From: Candidatus Heimdallarchaeota archaeon
GTDB taxonomy: Archaea > Asgardarchaeota > Heimdallarchaeia > JABLTI01
Assembly: GCA_018238155.1 (NCBI GenBank)
Contig: JABCTZ010000037.1
Coordinates: forward strand, 69,256 to 133,255
Direction of reading: 5' to 3'
Length of the DNA stretch: 64,000 nucleotides
Part shown: positions 13,104-22,182 of the stretch, one piece after another
Numbering within the stretch: the first letter of the stretch is position 1
How the letters are laid out: each line of letters begins with the position of its first letter
Made by a program: the position numbers and the translations under genes
The notes under the pieces: model-generated
What the model was told of the DNA's origin: nothing
What the model saw: the letters and a program-made list of their open reading frames with translations, nothing else
Database searches by the model: none

Positions 13104-14207
13104 TTATTTCTTTTTTATTGAAGCTTGGGCGATTTTCTGGAACCCTCTTGCATTAGCCATTACAGGATCTTCTGGCACAACAACCTCATCCGGAGAGTGT
13201 ACAATATTGTGTTCTGTAAGAATGGTTTTCATATTTTTGCCAAAAACTTCTGCACCACCACCTGTTAAAATTACTTTCTCTATCCATGCATCGAGTGGTA
13301 AAGTTCCTAGTAAAGTTGAAACCTCATCTACAATGATATCGGCGATTGTATTTACATAATAATCTGTTGTTTCGGTGATATCATATTGTTCTCCTGCGAT
13401 CATGACACTATCACGACCAATTTCTATTGCTTTAATTAATTCAAATGGTCGTAGAATTTTCCCAGTTTGTTTGTTAAGATTATCAGCAATTCTTCCTGCA
13501 AGAGTTGTTATCGATTCGTGAACACTACCACTTGCAGTTCTCATTAATCGTCCTTCATATACAGTTAGAATATTTGTTGCACCAGCACCTATGTCTATTA
13601 CTACAGCATCTACGGCTCTATCTTCCCCAGATGTTTTCAAGATTTCATAATAAGATCCATAACAAACAGGCATAACTAAACATTGGTCAATCTTTAGATT
13701 GATTTGTTTTTCTTCCCCTGTTGCATCATTAGCCACATTAATAGTCATGGTACCTTTCAGACCAGAACTAAGTGTTGTCATTTCTTCTTGAGGGCTGGCG
13801 ACTGGCACACCAGTTGCAATCACAAAATTTGCATAATCTTTTTTCACAAAAGTGGATAAGGCAGCTTGAATTGCAATTATTGCATCCTTTAAGCTTTTCA
13901 TTTTTCCATCTGCAGCGAGTGGACGCTTGATTTCACTTTGAAGTCTAGCTAATTCACCAACAAAGTATTTCGTTCCGGCATCTGTTGTTAAAACAAGATT
14001 GTTTATCCATGATTTGTCAGTTCCCAGTCCTTTCCATCCTGGATTTGGATCACCTACAAGACTCGGAATTTTTATTTCTGTTTTACCATCTGGACCCACC
14101 AGTTTTGATAAGCTAGTTCCAAGATCAATTCCAATTGCCTTTGTATTACTTTTATCTCCAGATTTAGATTTCGATTTAGATTTTGACTTTTTGGACAAAG
14201 TTTTCAC
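13104..14207 (-). CDS. actin-fold ATPase (ParM/StbA/Ta0583-like actin-like protein)
   Basis: Phosphate-1 IGIDLGTS, IPSLVG, YFVGELA, TGVPV, phosphate-2 VIDIGAGATN, adenosine ILTGGGA, DPVMANARGF. Confidence 0.9.
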   Translation of the reverse strand: MKTLSKKSKSKSKSKSGDKSNTKAIGIDLGTSLSKLVGPDGKTEIKIPSLVGDPNPGWKGLGTDKSWINNLVLTTDAGTKYFVGELARLQSEIKRPLAADGKMKSLKDAIIAIQAALSTFVKKDYANFVIATGVPVASPQEEMTTLSSGLKGTMTINVANDATGEEKQINLKIDQCLVMPVCYGSYYEILKTSGEDRAVDAVVIDIGAGATNILTVYEGRLMRTASGSVHESITTLAGRIADNLNKQTGKILRPFELIKAIEIGRDSVMIAGEQYDITETTDYYVNTIADIIVDEVSTLLGTLPLDAWIEKVILTGGGAEVFGKNMKTILTEHNIVHSPDEVVVPEDPVMANARGFQKIAQASIKKK

Positions 14208-14230
14208 CCTACTTTATTGAAGGAATAATT

Positions 14231-14252
14231 TCTTTTTATAGATATAAAAAGA
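14231..14252. promoter_or_regulatory. perfect 10-2-10 inverted repeat between a TATA-like box and the actin-like gene start
   Basis: TCTTTTTATA-GA-TATAAAAAGA. On the minus strand GAAAGTATTTAAAA (BRE/TATA-like) lies just upstream, at about 14257-14270. Confidence 0.45.
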
Positions 14253-14289
14253 GGATTTTAAATACTTTCTATTTGGGACATGAGAGAGT

Positions 14290-15633
14290 TTATTCTGGTT
14301 GCGGGTTAGCTCCTACATGGATATCAGCAGCAGCTGTTTCCTTCTCATCTTGGGATCCTTCCTTGATTGAGTGGATAACTTTGCCACCAGAGGTTTTTTC
14401 GAACATTTTTTTAGCTACTCTTCTTTGTATTGCTTGAACAATTAATCCCACTACCATGAAGAAAATAGCTAATGGTATTAGAACTAGCATTACCATTTCA
14501 GGTTGTCCGCCTTCAACACTAGTTATTATTGAATCAGGAAAATTAAGAAAAGTCAGTACTGGTACAGGATTCAATGCTAACCAGGACATAAATAGCAAAG
14601 TAACCATTCTTAACAGCGTACCTGATAGTACTATCAACAATAATCTCATCATTGAGGGTGTATAAGCAGATGCTGAAAGAGAGACGGAGATAAATGGATC
14701 ATTCTCTTCTAATTTCAAAAAATAATTTTTAAGTCGATTATTCAATTTATCCCAATCTTCTTGTGGTGAGATTCTAAAAAGTTTCTGACCAACTAAAGCT
14801 CTAATTTTGGAGAAGGAAGTGGTTACTTTCAATAATGATGTTGAAGTTTTCTTGCCTTTAATTGTTGATTCATCTTCAGCAATTGGTTTTTTTACACCAA
14901 TAGGCATCTTAAATTTCTTAAGGCGTTCAATGTTGCTTGATATTCTACGATGTCTTTGAACATTCGGTCCAATGACATTAAAGATATAACTAGCTTGGAA
15001 ACTTAATTCAAGTGAGAAGTAAATAAGAAATGCAGTAATAACCATTTTTGAAAATATCATTTGGAAAAAGTTTCCACTTGAAAATTCAAGGTTTAGCAAT
15101 AGTTTTCCATTCATTGCCGCAATGCCTAATACAATATTCATTGAAAAAAAGGATATAGCTGAGAGCGCGGGATTACATTCCTTCAAAAATCCTATTCCAG
15201 ACACAAATGCAATAATAATTGCCATTACAATAGCAAATGCAAATCCGGCATCTAAGAGATCTTGTTGTAATGGGATTTGTAGTGGATTAAGAATCAGTTC
15301 ATCAATTGGTATACCTATTACCGTTTCATTTCCACCAAAAATAGCTACATGAATAGCACTCATAATCGCTACTGCCCCGCTATCTCCATAACCTAAAATG
15401 AAAGCAATTCCATATCCAATGAGCAAGAACAATAATTCGAAGAAAAAGATAAACATCTTTAATCCATACCAAAACGATTGGAAACGCCAAATAACAGGGT
15501 CAACCGAGGTCATTACTAAAATAAAAGCAGCCAAAGATATTAAACCTGCAACTATTCGTGTAGAAACTAATAATGTCCTCATTTTTCGTACTCGATCTTT
15601 CTCAACACGAGAGCTTATAGATTGTTCAGACAA
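14290..15633 (-). CDS. polytopic membrane protein of unknown function (about 7-8 TM)
   Basis: Many hydrophobic segments and a cytoplasmic basic loop. Overlaps the DUF58 gene stop by 8 nt. Confidence 0.75.
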   Translation of the reverse strand: MSEQSISSRVEKDRVRKMRTLLVSTRIVAGLISLAAFILVMTSVDPVIWRFQSFWYGLKMFIFFFELLFLLIGYGIAFILGYGDSGAVAIMSAIHVAIFGGNETVIGIPIDELILNPLQIPLQQDLLDAGFAFAIVMAIIIAFVSGIGFLKECNPALSAISFFSMNIVLGIAAMNGKLLLNLEFSSGNFFQMIFSKMVITAFLIYFSLELSFQASYIFNVIGPNVQRHRRISSNIERLKKFKMPIGVKKPIAEDESTIKGKKTSTSLLKVTTSFSKIRALVGQKLFRISPQEDWDKLNNRLKNYFLKLEENDPFISVSLSASAYTPSMMRLLLIVLSGTLLRMVTLLFMSWLALNPVPVLTFLNFPDSIITSVEGGQPEMVMLVLIPLAIFFMVVGLIVQAIQRRVAKKMFEKTSGGKVIHSIKEGSQDEKETAAADIHVGANPQPE

Positions 15634-17023
15634 GTCCTATACCTCTCCTTTTTGCTTCAATATATTCGTTAATAACTGAAACTAAGAAATCATCTGGTCC
15701 AACAGAAATCACTCCGGCACGATATCTCTTAATATCTTTACTAAGTCTTCTACGTATTTCATAGTACTCTTCAGCAATAGCTTCTCCTAATGCTCTTTCT
15801 GTAGGACCAAGTAGAGTATTTTGTATTTCGAAGAAGGGACCAAAAGGTGAAATGATTATTACATCAAAACCTGCTGCAGATGCTTTTCGAATTCCACCAA
15901 GAATATCTTTTACGCTTCCTTCAAGATCAGAAATAATAATTAGCAAACCTCTGCTTCTTGTTCTCATAATCAAATTTTGTACCGCATTTATGAGATTTGA
16001 AGGACCTTTTGGTGTGACATAAGCAAGATTTTCTAAAATTCTGTTTAAATGTGATGAGCCTTGTTTAGGAGCTAGAAACGTATTTACTCGACTACTATAT
16101 GTTGCAATGCCCACCAAATCTTTCCGTTCAGAAGCCATATGTGCTAATAATACAACAGCACGAATACTGAACTCTAATTTCGTGTTTCGAATTAAACCTT
16201 GTTCCATACTTCGTGAAGTATCAAGTAAAACCATAACTCGAACATTTTTTTCAGTTTCAAATTCCCTAATTTGTAATTTATTTGTTCTGCTGAAGGCCTT
16301 CCAGTCAATGTGTCGGAAAGCATCTTCAGGATAATAATCGCGAATGCCCCAGAAATCCATTCCTGTTCCTTTCAATTTTGTTTTGTGGATACCAAATATT
16401 TTTCCTAATTGCCTCTTTGCACCCAATGTTTTCAGTTTAGCAATATCTTCATAGGATGGATAGACTAAGATTTCATCATAATCTTGCTTGACTACCGCTT
16501 CTTCATAAAAACCAAGACGGTCATGAATGATCACTTTTGTTGGTCCGATTTTATATAACCCTCGAACTGGAGTTCTCACTATATAAGAAAAGTCTACTTT
16601 TGCTCCGGCGTTCAATCTTGTATAAAGGTAATTTTCTCCAAGAACTAAATCCATTGTTTCGGGGTATGCATCATAAATTTCTAAATGATCAATAGCATTT
16701 GGTGAACCATTTTTTACCATTATTTTTACGTGAATATAATCTCCTGCAAAGCATTTTCTCTTTTCGAGGATTCTGTGTACTTGTATTCCTTCAGAATTTG
16801 CTTGAATTCTGAAAATCGGGTATCCAAATGTTGTGCCTATAACCATTAAAATCCCAACTAATAGAAAATAAGTGGTAATGGCATTAGGAATAGGATAGGT
16901 TACTTCTTCTAATGCGAAAAATGCCAGGATGTCAAATATCGGACTTATACCTTCAAAGGCAAGCCCTACAGATATCATAAACATCCCTCCGAAAAGGATA
17001 AATGAACCTCGTTTGGAAATCAT
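15626..17023 (-). CDS. DUF58 / VWA-domain membrane protein (MoxR partner)
   Basis: GTGMDFWGIRDYYPEDAFRHIDWKAFSR, REFETE, MIDAS-like LLDTSRSM, IISDL. Confidence 0.9.
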   Translation of the reverse strand: MISKRGSFILFGGMFMISVGLAFEGISPIFDILAFFALEEVTYPIPNAITTYFLLVGILMVIGTTFGYPIFRIQANSEGIQVHRILEKRKCFAGDYIHVKIMVKNGSPNAIDHLEIYDAYPETMDLVLGENYLYTRLNAGAKVDFSYIVRTPVRGLYKIGPTKVIIHDRLGFYEEAVVKQDYDEILVYPSYEDIAKLKTLGAKRQLGKIFGIHKTKLKGTGMDFWGIRDYYPEDAFRHIDWKAFSRTNKLQIREFETEKNVRVMVLLDTSRSMEQGLIRNTKLEFSIRAVVLLAHMASERKDLVGIATYSSRVNTFLAPKQGSSHLNRILENLAYVTPKGPSNLINAVQNLIMRTRSRGLLIIISDLEGSVKDILGGIRKASAAGFDVIIISPFGPFFEIQNTLLGPTERALGEAIAEEYYEIRRRLSKDIKRYRAGVISVGPDDFLVSVINEYIEAKRRGIGLV

Positions 17024-17084
17024 TTTTCAACAGTCCTTAGTATATATTCTTGAAGCAATTTTTTGTTTTTCGTTGATTTTAGAA

Positions 17085-18101
17085 TTACCTCGTTTCTCTA
17101 AATGGAATATCTCTGATAATATCTCTTACAATTGTTTGTGCTGTTATGCCTTCCAAATCAGCTTCAGGTTTTAAGATAAGTCGATGATAAACAGATTCAA
17201 CTACTATCCTTTTGATGTCATCTGGTACAACAAAATCTCGACCGCACATGGCAGCAAATGCTTTCGAAGCACTTAGCATAGCAATACTTGCTCGAGGGCT
17301 TCCTCCAAGAATCAAACGTGGATCAGTTCGTGTTCTCATAGTAACATCACGAATATATTCAATTATTCCTTGATCTACAAAAACACTATCTCTGACAGTC
17401 TTCTGTAATCTAACGATTGTTTCAGCAGTAGTTATCTCATTTATATGATTATCAACGGGGCGATGCTTTAATTGAATGATTTGTTCTTCTTCAGAAGCAT
17501 TTGGTAACCCAACTACTGATTTCATCAAAAATCTATCAAGTTGAGCTTCAGGCAATGGATACGTTCCTTCTTGTTCAATTGGGTTCTGTGTAGCAATTAC
17601 AATAAAAGGTGAGGAAAGAGCATAGGTATTCCCTTCTATCGATACTTGTCTTTCTGCCATTGCTTCAAGAAGAGCACTCTGTGTTTTTGGTGGAGCTCTG
17701 TTTATTTCATCTGCTAAGAGGATATTTGTGAAAATAGGTCCTCTTCTTAGTTTAAAAGTACTAGACCTTTGGTCAAAGACATTTGTTCCTAAAACATCAG
17801 AAGGAAGTAAATCAGGGGTAAATTGTACTCTCTTGTACTTGCACCCCAATGTTCTTGCAAACAGTTTTGCTAAAGTAGTTTTAGCAATTCCAGGTACTCC
17901 TTCCAGCAAAATGTGTCCATCACATAATAGACTAATCATTAAGTTTTGAACTACATTTTTCATGCCAATAATATGTTTCGAAAGTTCGTCTTGAATACTT
18001 TTAGCTATTCTTTCTACATCGGAAATATCCACAAGCCCACCTGCAGATCCAGAGACAATTTTCTCTGAGGGAGGAGGGGGTGGTGGTGCAAACTCAGACA
18101 T
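17085..18101 (-). CDS. moxR: MoxR family AAA+ ATPase
   Basis: GHILLEGVPGIAKT, RVQFTPDLLPSD, LADEINRAPPKTQSALLEAM, ATQNPIEQEGTYPLPEAQLDRF. Confidence 0.95.
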   Translation of the reverse strand: MSEFAPPPPPPSEKIVSGSAGGLVDISDVERIAKSIQDELSKHIIGMKNVVQNLMISLLCDGHILLEGVPGIAKTTLAKLFARTLGCKYKRVQFTPDLLPSDVLGTNVFDQRSSTFKLRRGPIFTNILLADEINRAPPKTQSALLEAMAERQVSIEGNTYALSSPFIVIATQNPIEQEGTYPLPEAQLDRFLMKSVVGLPNASEEEQIIQLKHRPVDNHINEITTAETIVRLQKTVRDSVFVDQGIIEYIRDVTMRTRTDPRLILGGSPRASIAMLSASKAFAAMCGRDFVVPDDIKRIVVESVYHRLILKPEADLEGITAQTIVRDIIRDIPFRETR

Positions 18102-18164
18102 TTTTTTACATACCCCATTTGTATTTTTTTTTTATTTGATTTTTTTTAAAAAATATTTTCTATA

Positions 18165-19664
18165 TTATCGTAATCCTTGTTTAGTTATTATATCTTCAAT
18201 ATTTTTCATCTCCAATACTAGAGCAAGGAAATTTTCCTCTGTAAGTTTCTTCTTCTTTTCAGTAAATAATTCTACATTATTGAGATTCTTCGAAAGAAGA
18301 TCATAATTGAATTTATCGGGATATTGCTCTTTGAGTAATTCCACAATCTGATTGAAATTAATTGTCAATCCGCAATTGAATTTCTTATCAAGTCTTCTTT
18401 TCAAACGTTTATACAGAACATTTAACGCTTTATCATATTGTTCATAGTTAACGTACCAAGACATTTTTGCGGCAAAGAATGATCGAGATCTTTTTTGTTT
18501 AATTTTTGTCATTAATAATGGAGACGCGCTTCGACCTTTTGGATAGTTACGTTTTAGAAAAATTAAAGCTATAATTGGGAAAAATGGCGCTAACAATGGA
18601 AACATTGTAAATGAATTAATGTAGCGCAAATACATACTCACATAGCTAAAGGGATCCAAAATACTCAAAGGTGCTCTAGCTTTAGAAGGTGAAAGATGTC
18701 CTTCATCATAGAAGATAGTTCTTGAGCCATTGATATCCAACCAATCAAATAGATTGCTAGCGTATTGAGCATTATCATATTCAGGCAACCTCATTAACTC
18801 ATTGGTGAAAATACTTGGATCAGAACAAATCAAAATATTACCTAATCCTGCAGCACCCAAAGGTAAAGGAGCCATAATAGAAAATGGTACACCGCCCCAT
18901 TCACCTTCATCTTGAGAAAATTCACCTCTTCTTGCTTTCTTAACATCCTGTTCCAATGAGCTATTACTGGTACTTCCGGCAATTCCAGTAAGGATTGGAT
19001 TTCCTAGAACTGTGAAGGTAGGAATCCATCGAGCTGAATCTAATGCTTCATCATAAGCTAAAAAGCCTATTGCTGAAGGATAACTTGTAACTACTTGAGT
19101 CACACCAACGATAGAAGGTAAACCGGGAGCACTTAAGAAATTCTTAATTACGGGCATAACTGGACTCTGATGATATGACTCATAGTCTAGTAGTAATGAT
19201 TTATTCACTTTCAACCCTAGAATTGGAAGACCACCTCCAAAACCAAATTCGGACATATTGATACTATCCAAGTATGGTGCAATTATCGCATTTATAAGAC
19301 CAAGAATGTCATTCGCACTTCCAAAATCATCTGCAATAAGTACGCTTCCTCCTCTCATTACGAAATAAGCTAAAGCTGCTGTTTCTGTTGGGTCATAATA
19401 TATTGTTGGACCCACAAGAGCTAATACTCCTAAATCGTCTATTCGTGTCAATACATTCAATGTCGAAACAATGGGCTGAAATTCATATCCTTCACTTTCT
19501 AAATTTTCCTTCAGAATACTTGTACCATCCCAGTTGGTATTATAAACAGAAAACTGGCGAGTTTCTTCTAAGCCTATTCTAGCAACTGATAAAACAATTG
19601 GCAAACAAAATATGATAAACAATATCGTTAACATAAATGCATTTCTATCAAATTTTAAAGCCAT
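18165..19664 (-). CDS. DUF4350 (GIFT-fold) membrane-anchored protein
   Basis: FSVYNTNWDGTS, GGSVLIADDFGSAN, SDPSIFTNEL, IFYDEGHL. N-terminal and C-terminal TM segments. Confidence 0.8.
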   Translation of the reverse strand: MALKFDRNAFMLTILFIIFCLPIVLSVARIGLEETRQFSVYNTNWDGTSILKENLESEGYEFQPIVSTLNVLTRIDDLGVLALVGPTIYYDPTETAALAYFVMRGGSVLIADDFGSANDILGLINAIIAPYLDSINMSEFGFGGGLPILGLKVNKSLLLDYESYHQSPVMPVIKNFLSAPGLPSIVGVTQVVTSYPSAIGFLAYDEALDSARWIPTFTVLGNPILTGIAGSTSNSSLEQDVKKARRGEFSQDEGEWGGVPFSIMAPLPLGAAGLGNILICSDPSIFTNELMRLPEYDNAQYASNLFDWLDINGSRTIFYDEGHLSPSKARAPLSILDPFSYVSMYLRYINSFTMFPLLAPFFPIIALIFLKRNYPKGRSASPLLMTKIKQKRSRSFFAAKMSWYVNYEQYDKALNVLYKRLKRRLDKKFNCGLTINFNQIVELLKEQYPDKFNYDLLSKNLNNVELFTEKKKKLTEENFLALVLEMKNIEDIITKQGLR

Positions 19665-19701
19665 TTCATTTTACCTCAATATACTTTATCTCGTTTTTAA
19701 A

Positions 19702-22182
19702 TTAGGGTTGAACATTTTTTGGTCCTTTATCTGTTGCAAGCAGAATGTTATGTAAAGCTTGTCTTGCTTGTGTGAAAGAGTTCTTTGAAATCTTATGATC
19801 ACTAAATCGAGATTCTTCATATCGCATTACTATCATAGTAACATCTCTCACAGGAACTCTGTTAGTTGAAGCAATTATACGTGCTAGCTCTCTAGGAGAG
19901 ATTGAAGGAGCATTTGATATACCGAAACTCTTCATACAAATTGACTCAAATGCACGATAACAAAGAACTGAAGCTCGTTTGTAATCTTTTGCGTTCTCAG
20001 ATTCATCAATTAATTTCAATATTGAGTTCAGGTCGTATTGATCGACCCCTACAGCCATTCCAGGTTGGGTCTTCTTTGACTTTCTGAATCGACCGAAAGC
20101 ATAAACAGTTGATATTATTATTATTCCAGATACCATAGCAATTAATATTCCAATCAATATAGGGCCCAAGTTTTCATTGCCTCCATTTGGTGTTGATGAA
20201 CTCACACTTGTAGGTGTAGGCGGATCAGGATATACTTGAAAGTTAACTCTAAAACTAAAGTCAATATTTTCCTTTAAGGTTATTATTATAGAATAATCAA
20301 TATTTGTTAATAAAGTTTCATCACCAGGGAAGAAGTAACTAAAATTACCATTATCTGATAGACTTCTAATAACGCTTTCATATTGCTCAATTGTTATGTT
20401 AACAATTCTATCAACAATCGGTCTACCAAATTGATCCGTTAGAGTTGCTTGGAGTGTATAAGTGGAATTATTATACAATGGATTACCATTAAAGGCATTG
20501 TATTCTGCATCTTCAATAACGCTCGAAGAATTTACCATAACAGCAAAATTAACTGTGGTGAATATATCAAGAGTAAAGCTTGTATTTGAAGAATCAAAAT
20601 AAGTGGTTGATGATGCTTCAATATTTATTGCCCACTGACTAACTACAACTGTAAATGAAAGTGGAACTGTCATTATAATAGTAAAGATTCCAAGAGCAGA
20701 AGTATTGCTATTATAAACTGGACCAGTATCGTTCCATTGTGCTGTTATAGACATTCCCTCAATAACACGATTATCATAAATGTCTCGTAATGTACCAGTT
20801 ACTTCAATAGACTCTCCAGGCATAACCATAATGGTATTAGTAAGAACGTTAGAACTGTTTACTGCTGAATTTCGAATTGTTGAATTTCCTACAACGGTTA
20901 GAATTTTGGTTTCAGTTGTCGCAGTTATTCCTTGCCCTGCAACTACATCAACCCAAATATTATTGTCACCTACAGGAAGATAAGTTCCAATAACTAGAAA
21001 AGTAGCATTAAATAGACCTGTACCACCAGCAGCAACAGATGTGGCTTGTAATGTTGTTGCGGTTTTTGTTGAACCTTGATCAACATAAATCTCAAGATTA
21101 ACAGGGGATGCATACGGATTGCTATTTGTATCTTCTATTAATCCTGTTATTGTAACACTGGTTTCATTACGGAGAATTACAGGATCACCTCCAGGACCAA
21201 GAGCTACTGGTTCGTCGATTGAAAAAGTAATCCCAGCACCGGAAAAGACAGTTATATCCACAGTTTCATTTGCCCAATCTGCAGCAGGAGTACCAATTAA
21301 AGCCTCATTTCTAATATCACCCACAACATAAGAAAGACTTAGAATACTAACATTGAATGAACCTTCTAAGGTATGTTGAGTTAATGGTGTTCCTAGTGGG
21401 ACATTAAATGTTGTATTTGTTATGAAACCCATAATTGTATCATTATAAGTAGACCCTAACCATTCAAAATTAATATCTTTTCCATTGGATTCAGGAATTA
21501 AAGGTAAAGGATCACTGTCATAATATAGCAAACCAGCAACAGCAAAGAAATCAGCTTGTTCACGTACAAGTGTTGTATTTGTAGACATACCCATGTAGAT
21601 ACTTGCATAACATTCTACGCTTTCTGAGATAACCTGTCGATTTTCTTCGATAGGACCCAGTAATGGATCTCCAGGAAAGACTGTATAAACAGTTACTACA
21701 CCAAAATCTTTTGAGTAATCTATATCACGACATAAGATTGAAAAATCACCATTACTATCTGTTCGATCCTCACCAACTAGATAAGCATTCTTTAAACCAG
21801 TTCGATCTGCTTCATAAGCAGCCCAAGAGAAAATTGACCAGAAAATCTCTATTGGTTCATCTGCCCACCCTACACTAGTTATTGGATCTTCTAAGCGACC
21901 TGTAACTACAAATGAATTTCCTCTAATAATAACTGTAGGAGTAATAGTTTTTGGTGAAAAAGATCCTTCTTTGGTTATGCTTTTTTCTCCAAGTCGAGGA
22001 TTTGTTATCTCAGCAGAGAGAGATGTTTTAGCCGAAAATGGTTTCTGTTCAACTACTTGTGAATAATCTTCAGAATAAAATGCAAAATTAGTAACTGTAA
22101 AAGATATACTCATTATTACAATAAAGATAATCGTAACTACCTTTAAGCTAGTTTCATTCCGATTCAAATTATATGTCTCCAA
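19702..22182 (-). CDS. large cell-surface protein with Ig-like repeats and C-terminal DUF4129
   Basis: N-terminal TM, repeated 'VTGxLxD' beta-sandwich units, PT linker, TM, then SPRELAR...YEESRFSDH (DUF4129-like). Confidence 0.8.
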   Translation of the reverse strand: METYNLNRNETSLKVVTIIFIVIMSISFTVTNFAFYSEDYSQVVEQKPFSAKTSLSAEITNPRLGEKSITKEGSFSPKTITPTVIIRGNSFVVTGRLEDPITSVGWADEPIEIFWSIFSWAAYEADRTGLKNAYLVGEDRTDSNGDFSILCRDIDYSKDFGVVTVYTVFPGDPLLGPIEENRQVISESVECYASIYMGMSTNTTLVREQADFFAVAGLLYYDSDPLPLIPESNGKDINFEWLGSTYNDTIMGFITNTTFNVPLGTPLTQHTLEGSFNVSILSLSYVVGDIRNEALIGTPAADWANETVDITVFSGAGITFSIDEPVALGPGGDPVILRNETSVTITGLIEDTNSNPYASPVNLEIYVDQGSTKTATTLQATSVAAGGTGLFNATFLVIGTYLPVGDNNIWVDVVAGQGITATTETKILTVVGNSTIRNSAVNSSNVLTNTIMVMPGESIEVTGTLRDIYDNRVIEGMSITAQWNDTGPVYNSNTSALGIFTIIMTVPLSFTVVVSQWAINIEASSTTYFDSSNTSFTLDIFTTVNFAVMVNSSSVIEDAEYNAFNGNPLYNNSTYTLQATLTDQFGRPIVDRIVNITIEQYESVIRSLSDNGNFSYFFPGDETLLTNIDYSIIITLKENIDFSFRVNFQVYPDPPTPTSVSSSTPNGGNENLGPILIGILIAMVSGIIIISTVYAFGRFRKSKKTQPGMAVGVDQYDLNSILKLIDESENAKDYKRASVLCYRAFESICMKSFGISNAPSISPRELARIIASTNRVPVRDVTMIVMRYEESRFSDHKISKNSFTQARQALHNILLATDKGPKNVQP

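Follow-up and report, generated by a model that had tools for sequence, protein, structure and literature searches.

Ta0583 of Thermoplasma acidophilum (PDB 2FSJ/2FSK/2FSN) is an archaeal ParM-like actin homologue on which the Pfam domain MreB-like_C (PF21522) is based; its gene is chromosomal and has no ParR/parC partner. To our knowledge, natural hydrolysis-dead cytomotive proteins are rare, and they can tell how nucleotide turnover tunes filament stability. Hydrolysis-dead bacterial actins have been engineered, ParM E148A being one of them. MamK provides another case: neutralising the same glutamate (E143A) leads to static filaments, and with the E143A/D161A mutations ATP is still bound, the filaments are static and stabilised, and the mutants are dominant over wild type (PMC5059902). 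The hydrolysis motif 'E...T-X-[D/E]' combines a glutamate that positions the attacking water with a threonine-acid pair that takes its proton, the actin equivalents being Q137 and H161 (PMC9597168). A natural protein without this motif is Spiroplasma MreB3, which still polymerises, with a Pi release too slow to measure (PMC9597168). In Spiroplasma eriocheiris MreB3 (PDB 7E1G) is one of several paralogs; it has lost the motif, has kept nucleotide binding and occurs alongside catalytic paralogs. Its K174T/S176D variant regains ATPase activity, and for MreB5 and actin Pi release is on the order of 1 nM Pi/s/uM. Among the ParM proteins proper, the plasmid-borne members (R1, pSK41, Alp7A, B. thuringiensis) are accompanied by chromosomal ParMs (cParMs, for instance Dh-cParM1, PDB 8X1I), which are genome-encoded (PMC12270681).

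The window analysed here is a stretch of 64,000 nucleotides from a Candidatus Heimdallarchaeota contig of more than 133 kb that carries housekeeping genes, the gene order at the locus being inherited across a family. On its minus strand, an open reading frame of 367 aa with a GTG start (13104..14207), singled out in the first-pass annotation, was found to be a strongly conserved actin-fold gene (Table 1), the product of which we term the V-type protein. Like Ta0583, it is chromosomal and archaeal, is composed of the same two Pfam domains and stands without a ParR/parC partner; the two proteins are about 23% identical, and Ta0583 has Gln and T-D in phosphate-2 where the V-type protein has Val and A...N. 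The V-type protein shares its fold class with the plasmid ParMs and the cParMs, and is genome-encoded as the latter are. It differs from ParMRC systems by the absence of a ParR gene, of centromere repeats and of the catalytic Glu/Gln, and from plasmid ParMs in being vertically inherited in one archaeal family and not mobile. Compared with the engineered MamK mutants, it represents a natural state with several further changes in the pocket, kept by purifying selection. MreB3 belongs to the MreB subfamily, is bacterial and reads D...K-x-S, whereas the V-type protein, known from its sequence, reads V...A-T-N. The best reading of these comparisons is that the V-type protein would be a natural analogue of Spiroplasma MreB3.

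Table 1. Features of the V-type locus and of the cassette upstream of it, in window coordinates
Feature	Position	Strand	Remarks
CDS, V-clade ParM/Ta0583-type actin-like protein	13104..14198	-	TTG start (M-S-K-K...) to TAA stop
Adenosine motif G316-G-G-A-E320	13248..13262	-	glycines G316-G318 intact, invariant
Phosphate-2 motif D205-I-G-A-G-A-T-N212	13572..13595	-	catalytic paralogs: D-I-G-H-G-S-T-D
Val181-Cys182 codons GTT TGT	13662..13667	-	first turn of connect-1 helix; Glu-Pro in others; water-positioning Glu/Gln site
Phosphate-1 motif G26-I-D-L-G-T-S32	14112..14132	-	intact; D28 aligns to MreB D16
Disordered Lys/Ser-rich N-terminal tail	14139..14195	-	pLDDT below 50, residues 2-18
Putative promoter and ribosome-binding site	14204..14268	-	both boxes, same spacing, in orthologs at 12 other loci
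Polytopic membrane protein	14290-15633	-	last cassette gene, directly upstream of V-type gene
DUF58/vWA protein	15626-17023	-	Pfam; upstream cassette
MoxR AAA+	17085-18101	-	Pfam; upstream cassette
DUF4350 protein	18165-19664	-	Pfam; upstream cassette
Ig-like/DUF4129 protein	19702-22182	-	Pfam; first gene of upstream cassette (14290..22182)

Family assignment was consistent between sequence and fold. Pfam ALP_N (PF17989) matched residues 26-180 (50.0 bits, cut-off 26.3, E 4.8e-13) and MreB-like_C residues 203-327 (55.8 bits, cut-off 27.8, E 8.9e-15). The closest solved relative by sequence was Ta0583 (5.7e-11, aligned over residues 21-363), followed by CorM and chromosomal ParM. The AlphaFold2 model, computed from 75 relatives, had a pLDDT of 88.3 and a pTM of 0.86, with disorder limited to the first 18 residues. 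Foldseek again returned Ta0583 as the top match (E 1.5e-20, TM 0.81), followed by B. thuringiensis ParM, Alp7A, Dh-cParM1 and CorM; the top 16 matches were all Ta0583, ParM, Alp7A, cParM or CorM, and MreB, MamK and actin ranked lower. By family and fold, the V-type protein is a uniform actin-like protein of the ParM/Alp/Ta0583 branch and does not belong to the eukaryote-like actins. The first-pass annotation had described it as a mosaic of ParM/Alp-type, MamK/MreB-like and true-actin motifs. The motifs it had quoted are present (GIDLGTS, IPSLVGDP, FVGELA, TGVPV, VMPVCYGS, TVYEG and DPVMANARGF), except that RPLADG actually reads RPLAADG, but a mosaic or chimeric origin was rejected because a single family matches the protein from end to end. 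The segments compared with true actin reflect likeness at the level of the superfamily only, the match to Pfam Actin (PF00022) remaining below cut-off (19.8 bits vs 27) and extending over residues 200-295 only. The score against the NCBIfam ParM model was 57 bits vs a cut-off of 417, and the relatives are labelled 'ParM/StbA family protein' or 'hypothetical' in NCBI and other databases. The Asgard family is tight, with at least 230 bits between its members vs less than 100 bits to all else; members of this chromosomal, tightly conserved ParM/Ta0583-like family occur in the Heimdall, Loki, Hel, Njord and also the Sigyn lineages.

We then compared the catalytic site across 120 listed homologues, 44-94% identical and nearly all named as Asgard archaea, and across 129 distant actin-like representatives. 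HMMER alignments placed opposite Val181 the Q of Ta0583, the E of CorM and the Q of Dh-cParM1, and MAFFT paired it with E143 of E. coli MreB (E143-P144); this MreB alignment was used in place of the HMMER pairwise alignment to MamK, which mis-registers the connect-1 segment. The same column contains Q in 108 and E in 13 of the 129 distant representatives. Among the matches listed, residues 181-182 are V-C in all 31 close orthologs and E-P in all 90 others. The water-positioning Glu/Gln (MreB E140/E143, MamK E143, actin Q137) is thus replaced by Val181 in 31/31 orthologs, in agreement with the initial observation of a missing catalytic residue, and the GTT codon reported for it was confirmed at 13665-13667. 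This codon differs synonymously between species (GTT, GTC, GTA) and, together with the fixation of V-C, this variation indicates that the substitution is neither due to chance nor to a sequencing error. The second half of the motif is changed as well. In the MreB alignment, T170, T171 and E172 of the E. coli protein lie opposite A210, T211 and N212, with A210 and N212 standing in for the T and the D/E of the 'T-X-[D/E]' pair and A208 for a His; the Thr/Ser-x-Asp/Glu proton-relay pair is absent (A210-T-N212 vs S/T-T-D in the catalytic paralogs) and the full 'E...T-X-[D/E]' motif reads V...A-T-N. Only six columns carry fixed differences between the 31 V-clade and the 90 E-clade sequences, namely E181V, P182C, H208A, D212N, A232S and T237A, to which a looser filter adds S/T210A and Y/H320E. 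At position 320 a Glu is fixed in the V clade, where 53 of the other sequences have Tyr and 34 have His.

The residues that hold the nucleotide are conserved. The phosphate-1, phosphate-2 and adenosine binding motifs (DxG, DxGxxT, GGG) are all present; G26, D28, G30, D205, G207, G209, T211 and G316-318 are invariant among the 75 relatives, as are L29, T31 and S32 of phosphate-1. At or beside the three motif positions, the V clade has not gained a fixed Glu, Gln, Asp or His. The acidic residues specific to the clade are E188, two turns down the connect-1 helix, and E320 in the adenosine motif, both of which, judged from motif positions, should not be near the gamma-phosphate. The N212 and A208 changes by themselves would not prove inactivity: Asn is found at 212 in 23 of the 129 distant ParM-like proteins, and Ala at 208 occurs in MamK too. 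In addition, the A208, A210 and E320 changes might alter or weaken nucleotide binding, and not hydrolysis only. Since the motif residues are lost and the phosphate- and adenosine-binding residues are kept, ATP binding with poor hydrolysis, as proposed from the first inspection of the locus, is the best reading. In three more distant family members (P0123, P0124 and P0125, 38-43% identical), the catalytic Glu is likewise absent, the pair being Asp-Ala, Gly-Pro and Ser-Ser, respectively. The site may have been lost or weakened repeatedly within the family.

The start of the gene was examined by aligning the regions upstream of 13 loci. The longest open reading frame begins at the GTG at 14207, from which residue numbers are counted, three codons before a TTG. 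Common to the 13 upstream regions are this TTG followed by TCC AAA AA (M-S-K-K), a GGGTG(A/T) box 5-8 nt ahead of it and an AAAG(T/C)(A/T)TTTAA box about 60 nt upstream; 12 of the 13 aligned loci keep the TTG together with the Shine-Dalgarno-like GGGTG(A/T) box. In the window, the TTG lies at 14198-14196, GGGTGA at 14209-14204, 5 nt ahead of it, and a TATA/BRE-like box, AAAGTATTTAAAA, at 14268-14256, about 60 nt ahead of the start. On the basis of this conservation, the true start is probably the TTG at 14198, and the V-type gene probably has its own promoter, with the boxes as its putative elements. The basic Ser-Lys tail noticed at first reading is real, although it corresponds to a hexanucleotide tandem repeat (14160-14183, period 6, 4 copies) that encodes the (K-S)n run and is variable in length. 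Tail length is very different among orthologs, most of which open with a short M-S-K-K, and the conserved part of the tail is this short basic N-terminus only. The copy number of the Lys-Ser repeat differs even among the closest relatives (G001, G009), so that it resembles a slippage-prone microsatellite within a coding region.

The genome to which the window belongs contains three paralogs at unlinked loci: the V-type gene, E60 (60% identical, contig 15, C15:223158-224219) and E51 (51% identical, contig 17), the latter two reading E-P and S-T-D. In a mixture-model tree of 47 sequences, the V clade was monophyletic (100/100), with a stem of 0.53 vs 0.16 for its sister, and grouped with the clade of the catalytic E60 paralog (99/96); a quick tree of 117 rows agreed. 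All 12 of the 12 species-level genomes of the family to which the window belongs (f1) have the V type, whereas none of 71 genomes from six further families in this class do; in those families there are one or two catalytic copies, or no copy could be detected. Both catalytic paralogs are present in every f1 genome, the exception being a 64%-complete genome with a single one detected. Median pairwise dN/dS was 0.065 for the V type vs 0.040 and 0.055 for the catalytic paralogs, values that are rough because dS is largely saturated. Identity between V-type proteins of different species is about 84%, which is the level of MoxR, neighbours such as endonuclease V being at 55-60%, with endonuclease V itself near 55%, and it ranges from 77 to 94% across two genera. 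A decaying pseudogene was rejected on the grounds of this low dN/dS, of the identity across genera and of the synonymous Val codons; the V-type gene is functional and constrained, under strong purifying selection. The second genus is represented by one genome, and its V-type gene (L022:2474-3529, on G011:C275) carries an in-frame TAA at the Glu92 codon (LQS*IKRPL); on a near-identical metagenome contig (L010, protein P0025) the gene is intact. Either the assembly is wrong at this codon or the gene was inactivated recently in that lineage.

Family membership, motif loss, clade restriction, selection and gene order being established, we consider it probable that the V-type protein is a duplicated ParM/Ta0583-type paralog which binds ATP, is deficient in its hydrolysis and supplies long-lived filament subunits or a long-lived partner. 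A catalytically normal paralog would have been duplicated in the ancestor of one Heimdall-group Asgard family, and a burst of change following the duplication would have rebuilt the nucleotide pocket. The water-positioning Glu would have been exchanged for Val, beside P182C, the Thr/Ser-x-Asp proton-relay pair for Ala-x-Asn, H208 for Ala and Y/H320 for Glu, while the glycines and aspartates predicted to hold the phosphates, Mg and adenosine were all kept, the protein having been under strong purifying selection ever since. The present protein would still bind ATP and take the polymer-competent ATP state, but would hydrolyse ATP extremely slowly or never, giving long-lived, non-dynamic subunits and slow-turnover filaments. 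Homopolymers built from such subunits could be stable; alternatively, the subunits could enter the filaments of the two catalytic paralogs present in the same cell, cap them or nucleate them. That the protein binds ATP, has lost hydrolysis, polymerises and has any partner is inferred.

The same pocket could also serve a protein that does not polymerise. As an ATP-bound regulator, ARP-like or dominant-negative-like, the V-type protein would cap, nucleate or sequester the filaments of the catalytic paralogs, its locked nucleotide state amounting to a permanent 'on' conformation. It always co-occurs with a catalytic sister to which it is about 60% identical, its conserved weak TTG start would fit a sub-stoichiometric protein, and the hydrolysis-dead MamK allele is trans-dominant over wild type (PMC5059902). 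However, co-occurrence is a trivial outcome, because the duplication happened in the ancestor of the family; the three paralogs are encoded at unlinked loci, and a TTG start says little about abundance. We consider this regulatory role unlikely, and retain the hydrolysis-deficient filament subunit as the preferred reading.

The genomic neighbourhood was then considered. As originally stated for this locus, plasmid-type parR/parC elements are absent: no ParR-like gene or iteron array was found nearby, and tandem repeats are limited to the coding Ser-Lys repeat plus one A-rich 10-mer. Instead of the partners of a ParMRC system, the V-type gene has a polytopic membrane protein and endonuclease V as neighbours. 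In every V-type genome (11 related genomes of the family, together with other metagenome contigs, L006-L010) it follows the co-oriented genes for DUF4350, MoxR, DUF58/vWA and a membrane protein of 440-460 aa. The cassette itself, including a 25-32% identical membrane protein, was recovered in 39 of the 41 sampled genomes of the class. Outside family f1, nothing actin-like follows it in the six other families compared, nor is there a common replacement gene downstream: the genes there (a 177-aa unknown, MFS, acyl-CoA synthetase, nucleotidyltransferases, CheR and EF-G-like) are mutually unrelated. On the other side of the V-type gene, the endonuclease V gene is kept equally faithfully. Family f4 (L033 and L037) differs in having DUF58 ahead of MoxR, which inverts the arrangement seen in the window and the remaining families.

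These observations bear on the idea that the V-type protein is a cytoplasmic scaffold or effector of the DUF4129-DUF4350-MoxR-DUF58-membrane cassette, recruited to organise or anchor an envelope complex, the loss of ATPase then reflecting a static structural role. The V-type gene is directly downstream and co-oriented in 12 of 12 V-type species and on further metagenome contigs, its conservation equals that of MoxR and DUF58, and its basic N-terminal tail could bind the membrane. Against this, six other families keep the full cassette with no actin-like gene behind it, the conserved TATA-like and Shine-Dalgarno-like boxes within the 67-180 nt gap point to separate transcription, and the equal retention of endonuclease V indicates that gene order may reflect shallow divergence only. 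For these reasons a functional link between the V-type gene and the cassette is no more than possible, and we regard the scaffold role as distinctly improbable. A complex prediction for the actin-like protein (A1) and the upstream membrane protein (A2) gave a score of 0.00 which, obtained without controls, is neutral on binding.

A normal, dynamic ParM-like ATPase, in which N212 activates the water or the catalytic residue could come in trans from a partner, is very improbable: about 6% of the 129 distant representatives also have no Glu, Gln or Asp at position 181, and the relay residue of actin is a His and not an Asp, so that the chemistry is flexible (PMC9597168), but here all three motif positions changed together, to Val and Ala, neither of which can accept a proton, and to Asn, a poor base, no replacement residue is fixed around them, and the closest natural precedent, MreB3, with the three motif positions altered, is nearly inactive (PMC9597168).

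Studies of the Asgard cytoskeleton have mainly dealt with lokiactin, ARPs, profilin, gelsolin and tubulins, and in the literature searched on Asgard ParM-like/Ta0583 proteins we found no paper describing the present family. Its existence points to a second actin-fold system in these archaea. Within it, one Heimdall family has expanded its complement to three paralogs, one of which cleanly lost the hydrolysis motif under selection. The V-type protein provides a ready natural 'E-to-V' control, with an active, 60%-identical sister in the same cell. A further and rather doubtful proposition is that a division of labour of ParM-type proteins evolved independently in Asgard archaea, the hydrolysis-dead paralog co-assembling with the catalytic ones or anchoring them to the MoxR-vWA membrane machine. 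If this were true, the hydrolysis-dead paralog would set filament stability, as the non-hydrolysing site of alpha/beta-tubulin or the Arps for actin do, and the closest archaeal relatives of eukaryotes would possess a second, non-eukaryote-like, regulated actin cytoskeleton.

The catalytic paralogs have neighbourhoods of their own. The E51 paralog (C17; L005:6599-10310; L023-L029) heads a co-oriented string in its genome, composed of the actin-like gene, a 229-aa unknown overlapping it by 23 nt, an unknown of 372 aa and an Arf/Ras-like GTPase. The single catalytic copy of other families in the class is located about 0.1-8 kb from a homologue of that GTPase (27-30% identity). The recurrence of catalytic copies near the same GTPase across families points to an ancestral association of the actin-like protein with the small Arf/Ras-like GTPase, and may hint at a GTPase-actin coupling. 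The E60 paralog (C15; L004:2165-10235; L011:9001-17034) adjoins another conserved string, made up of an Arf-like protein (184 aa), three proteins of 520, 465 and 532 aa without Pfam matches and a HEAT-repeat protein. The Arf-like neighbours of E60 and E51 were not detectably alike by BLASTP (E = 0.037). An adaptor gene common to the paralog loci was also considered and rejected, the genes of about 228 aa beside E60 and E51 being unrelated (E = 13). Elsewhere, the same genome encodes two proteins that match Pfam Actin, a genuine eukaryote-type actin with 445.6 bits (C45:43051-44163) and, more weakly, an ARP-like protein with 95 bits (C20:28919-29974); with these two genes at other loci, the cell has at least five actin-fold cytoskeletal candidates.
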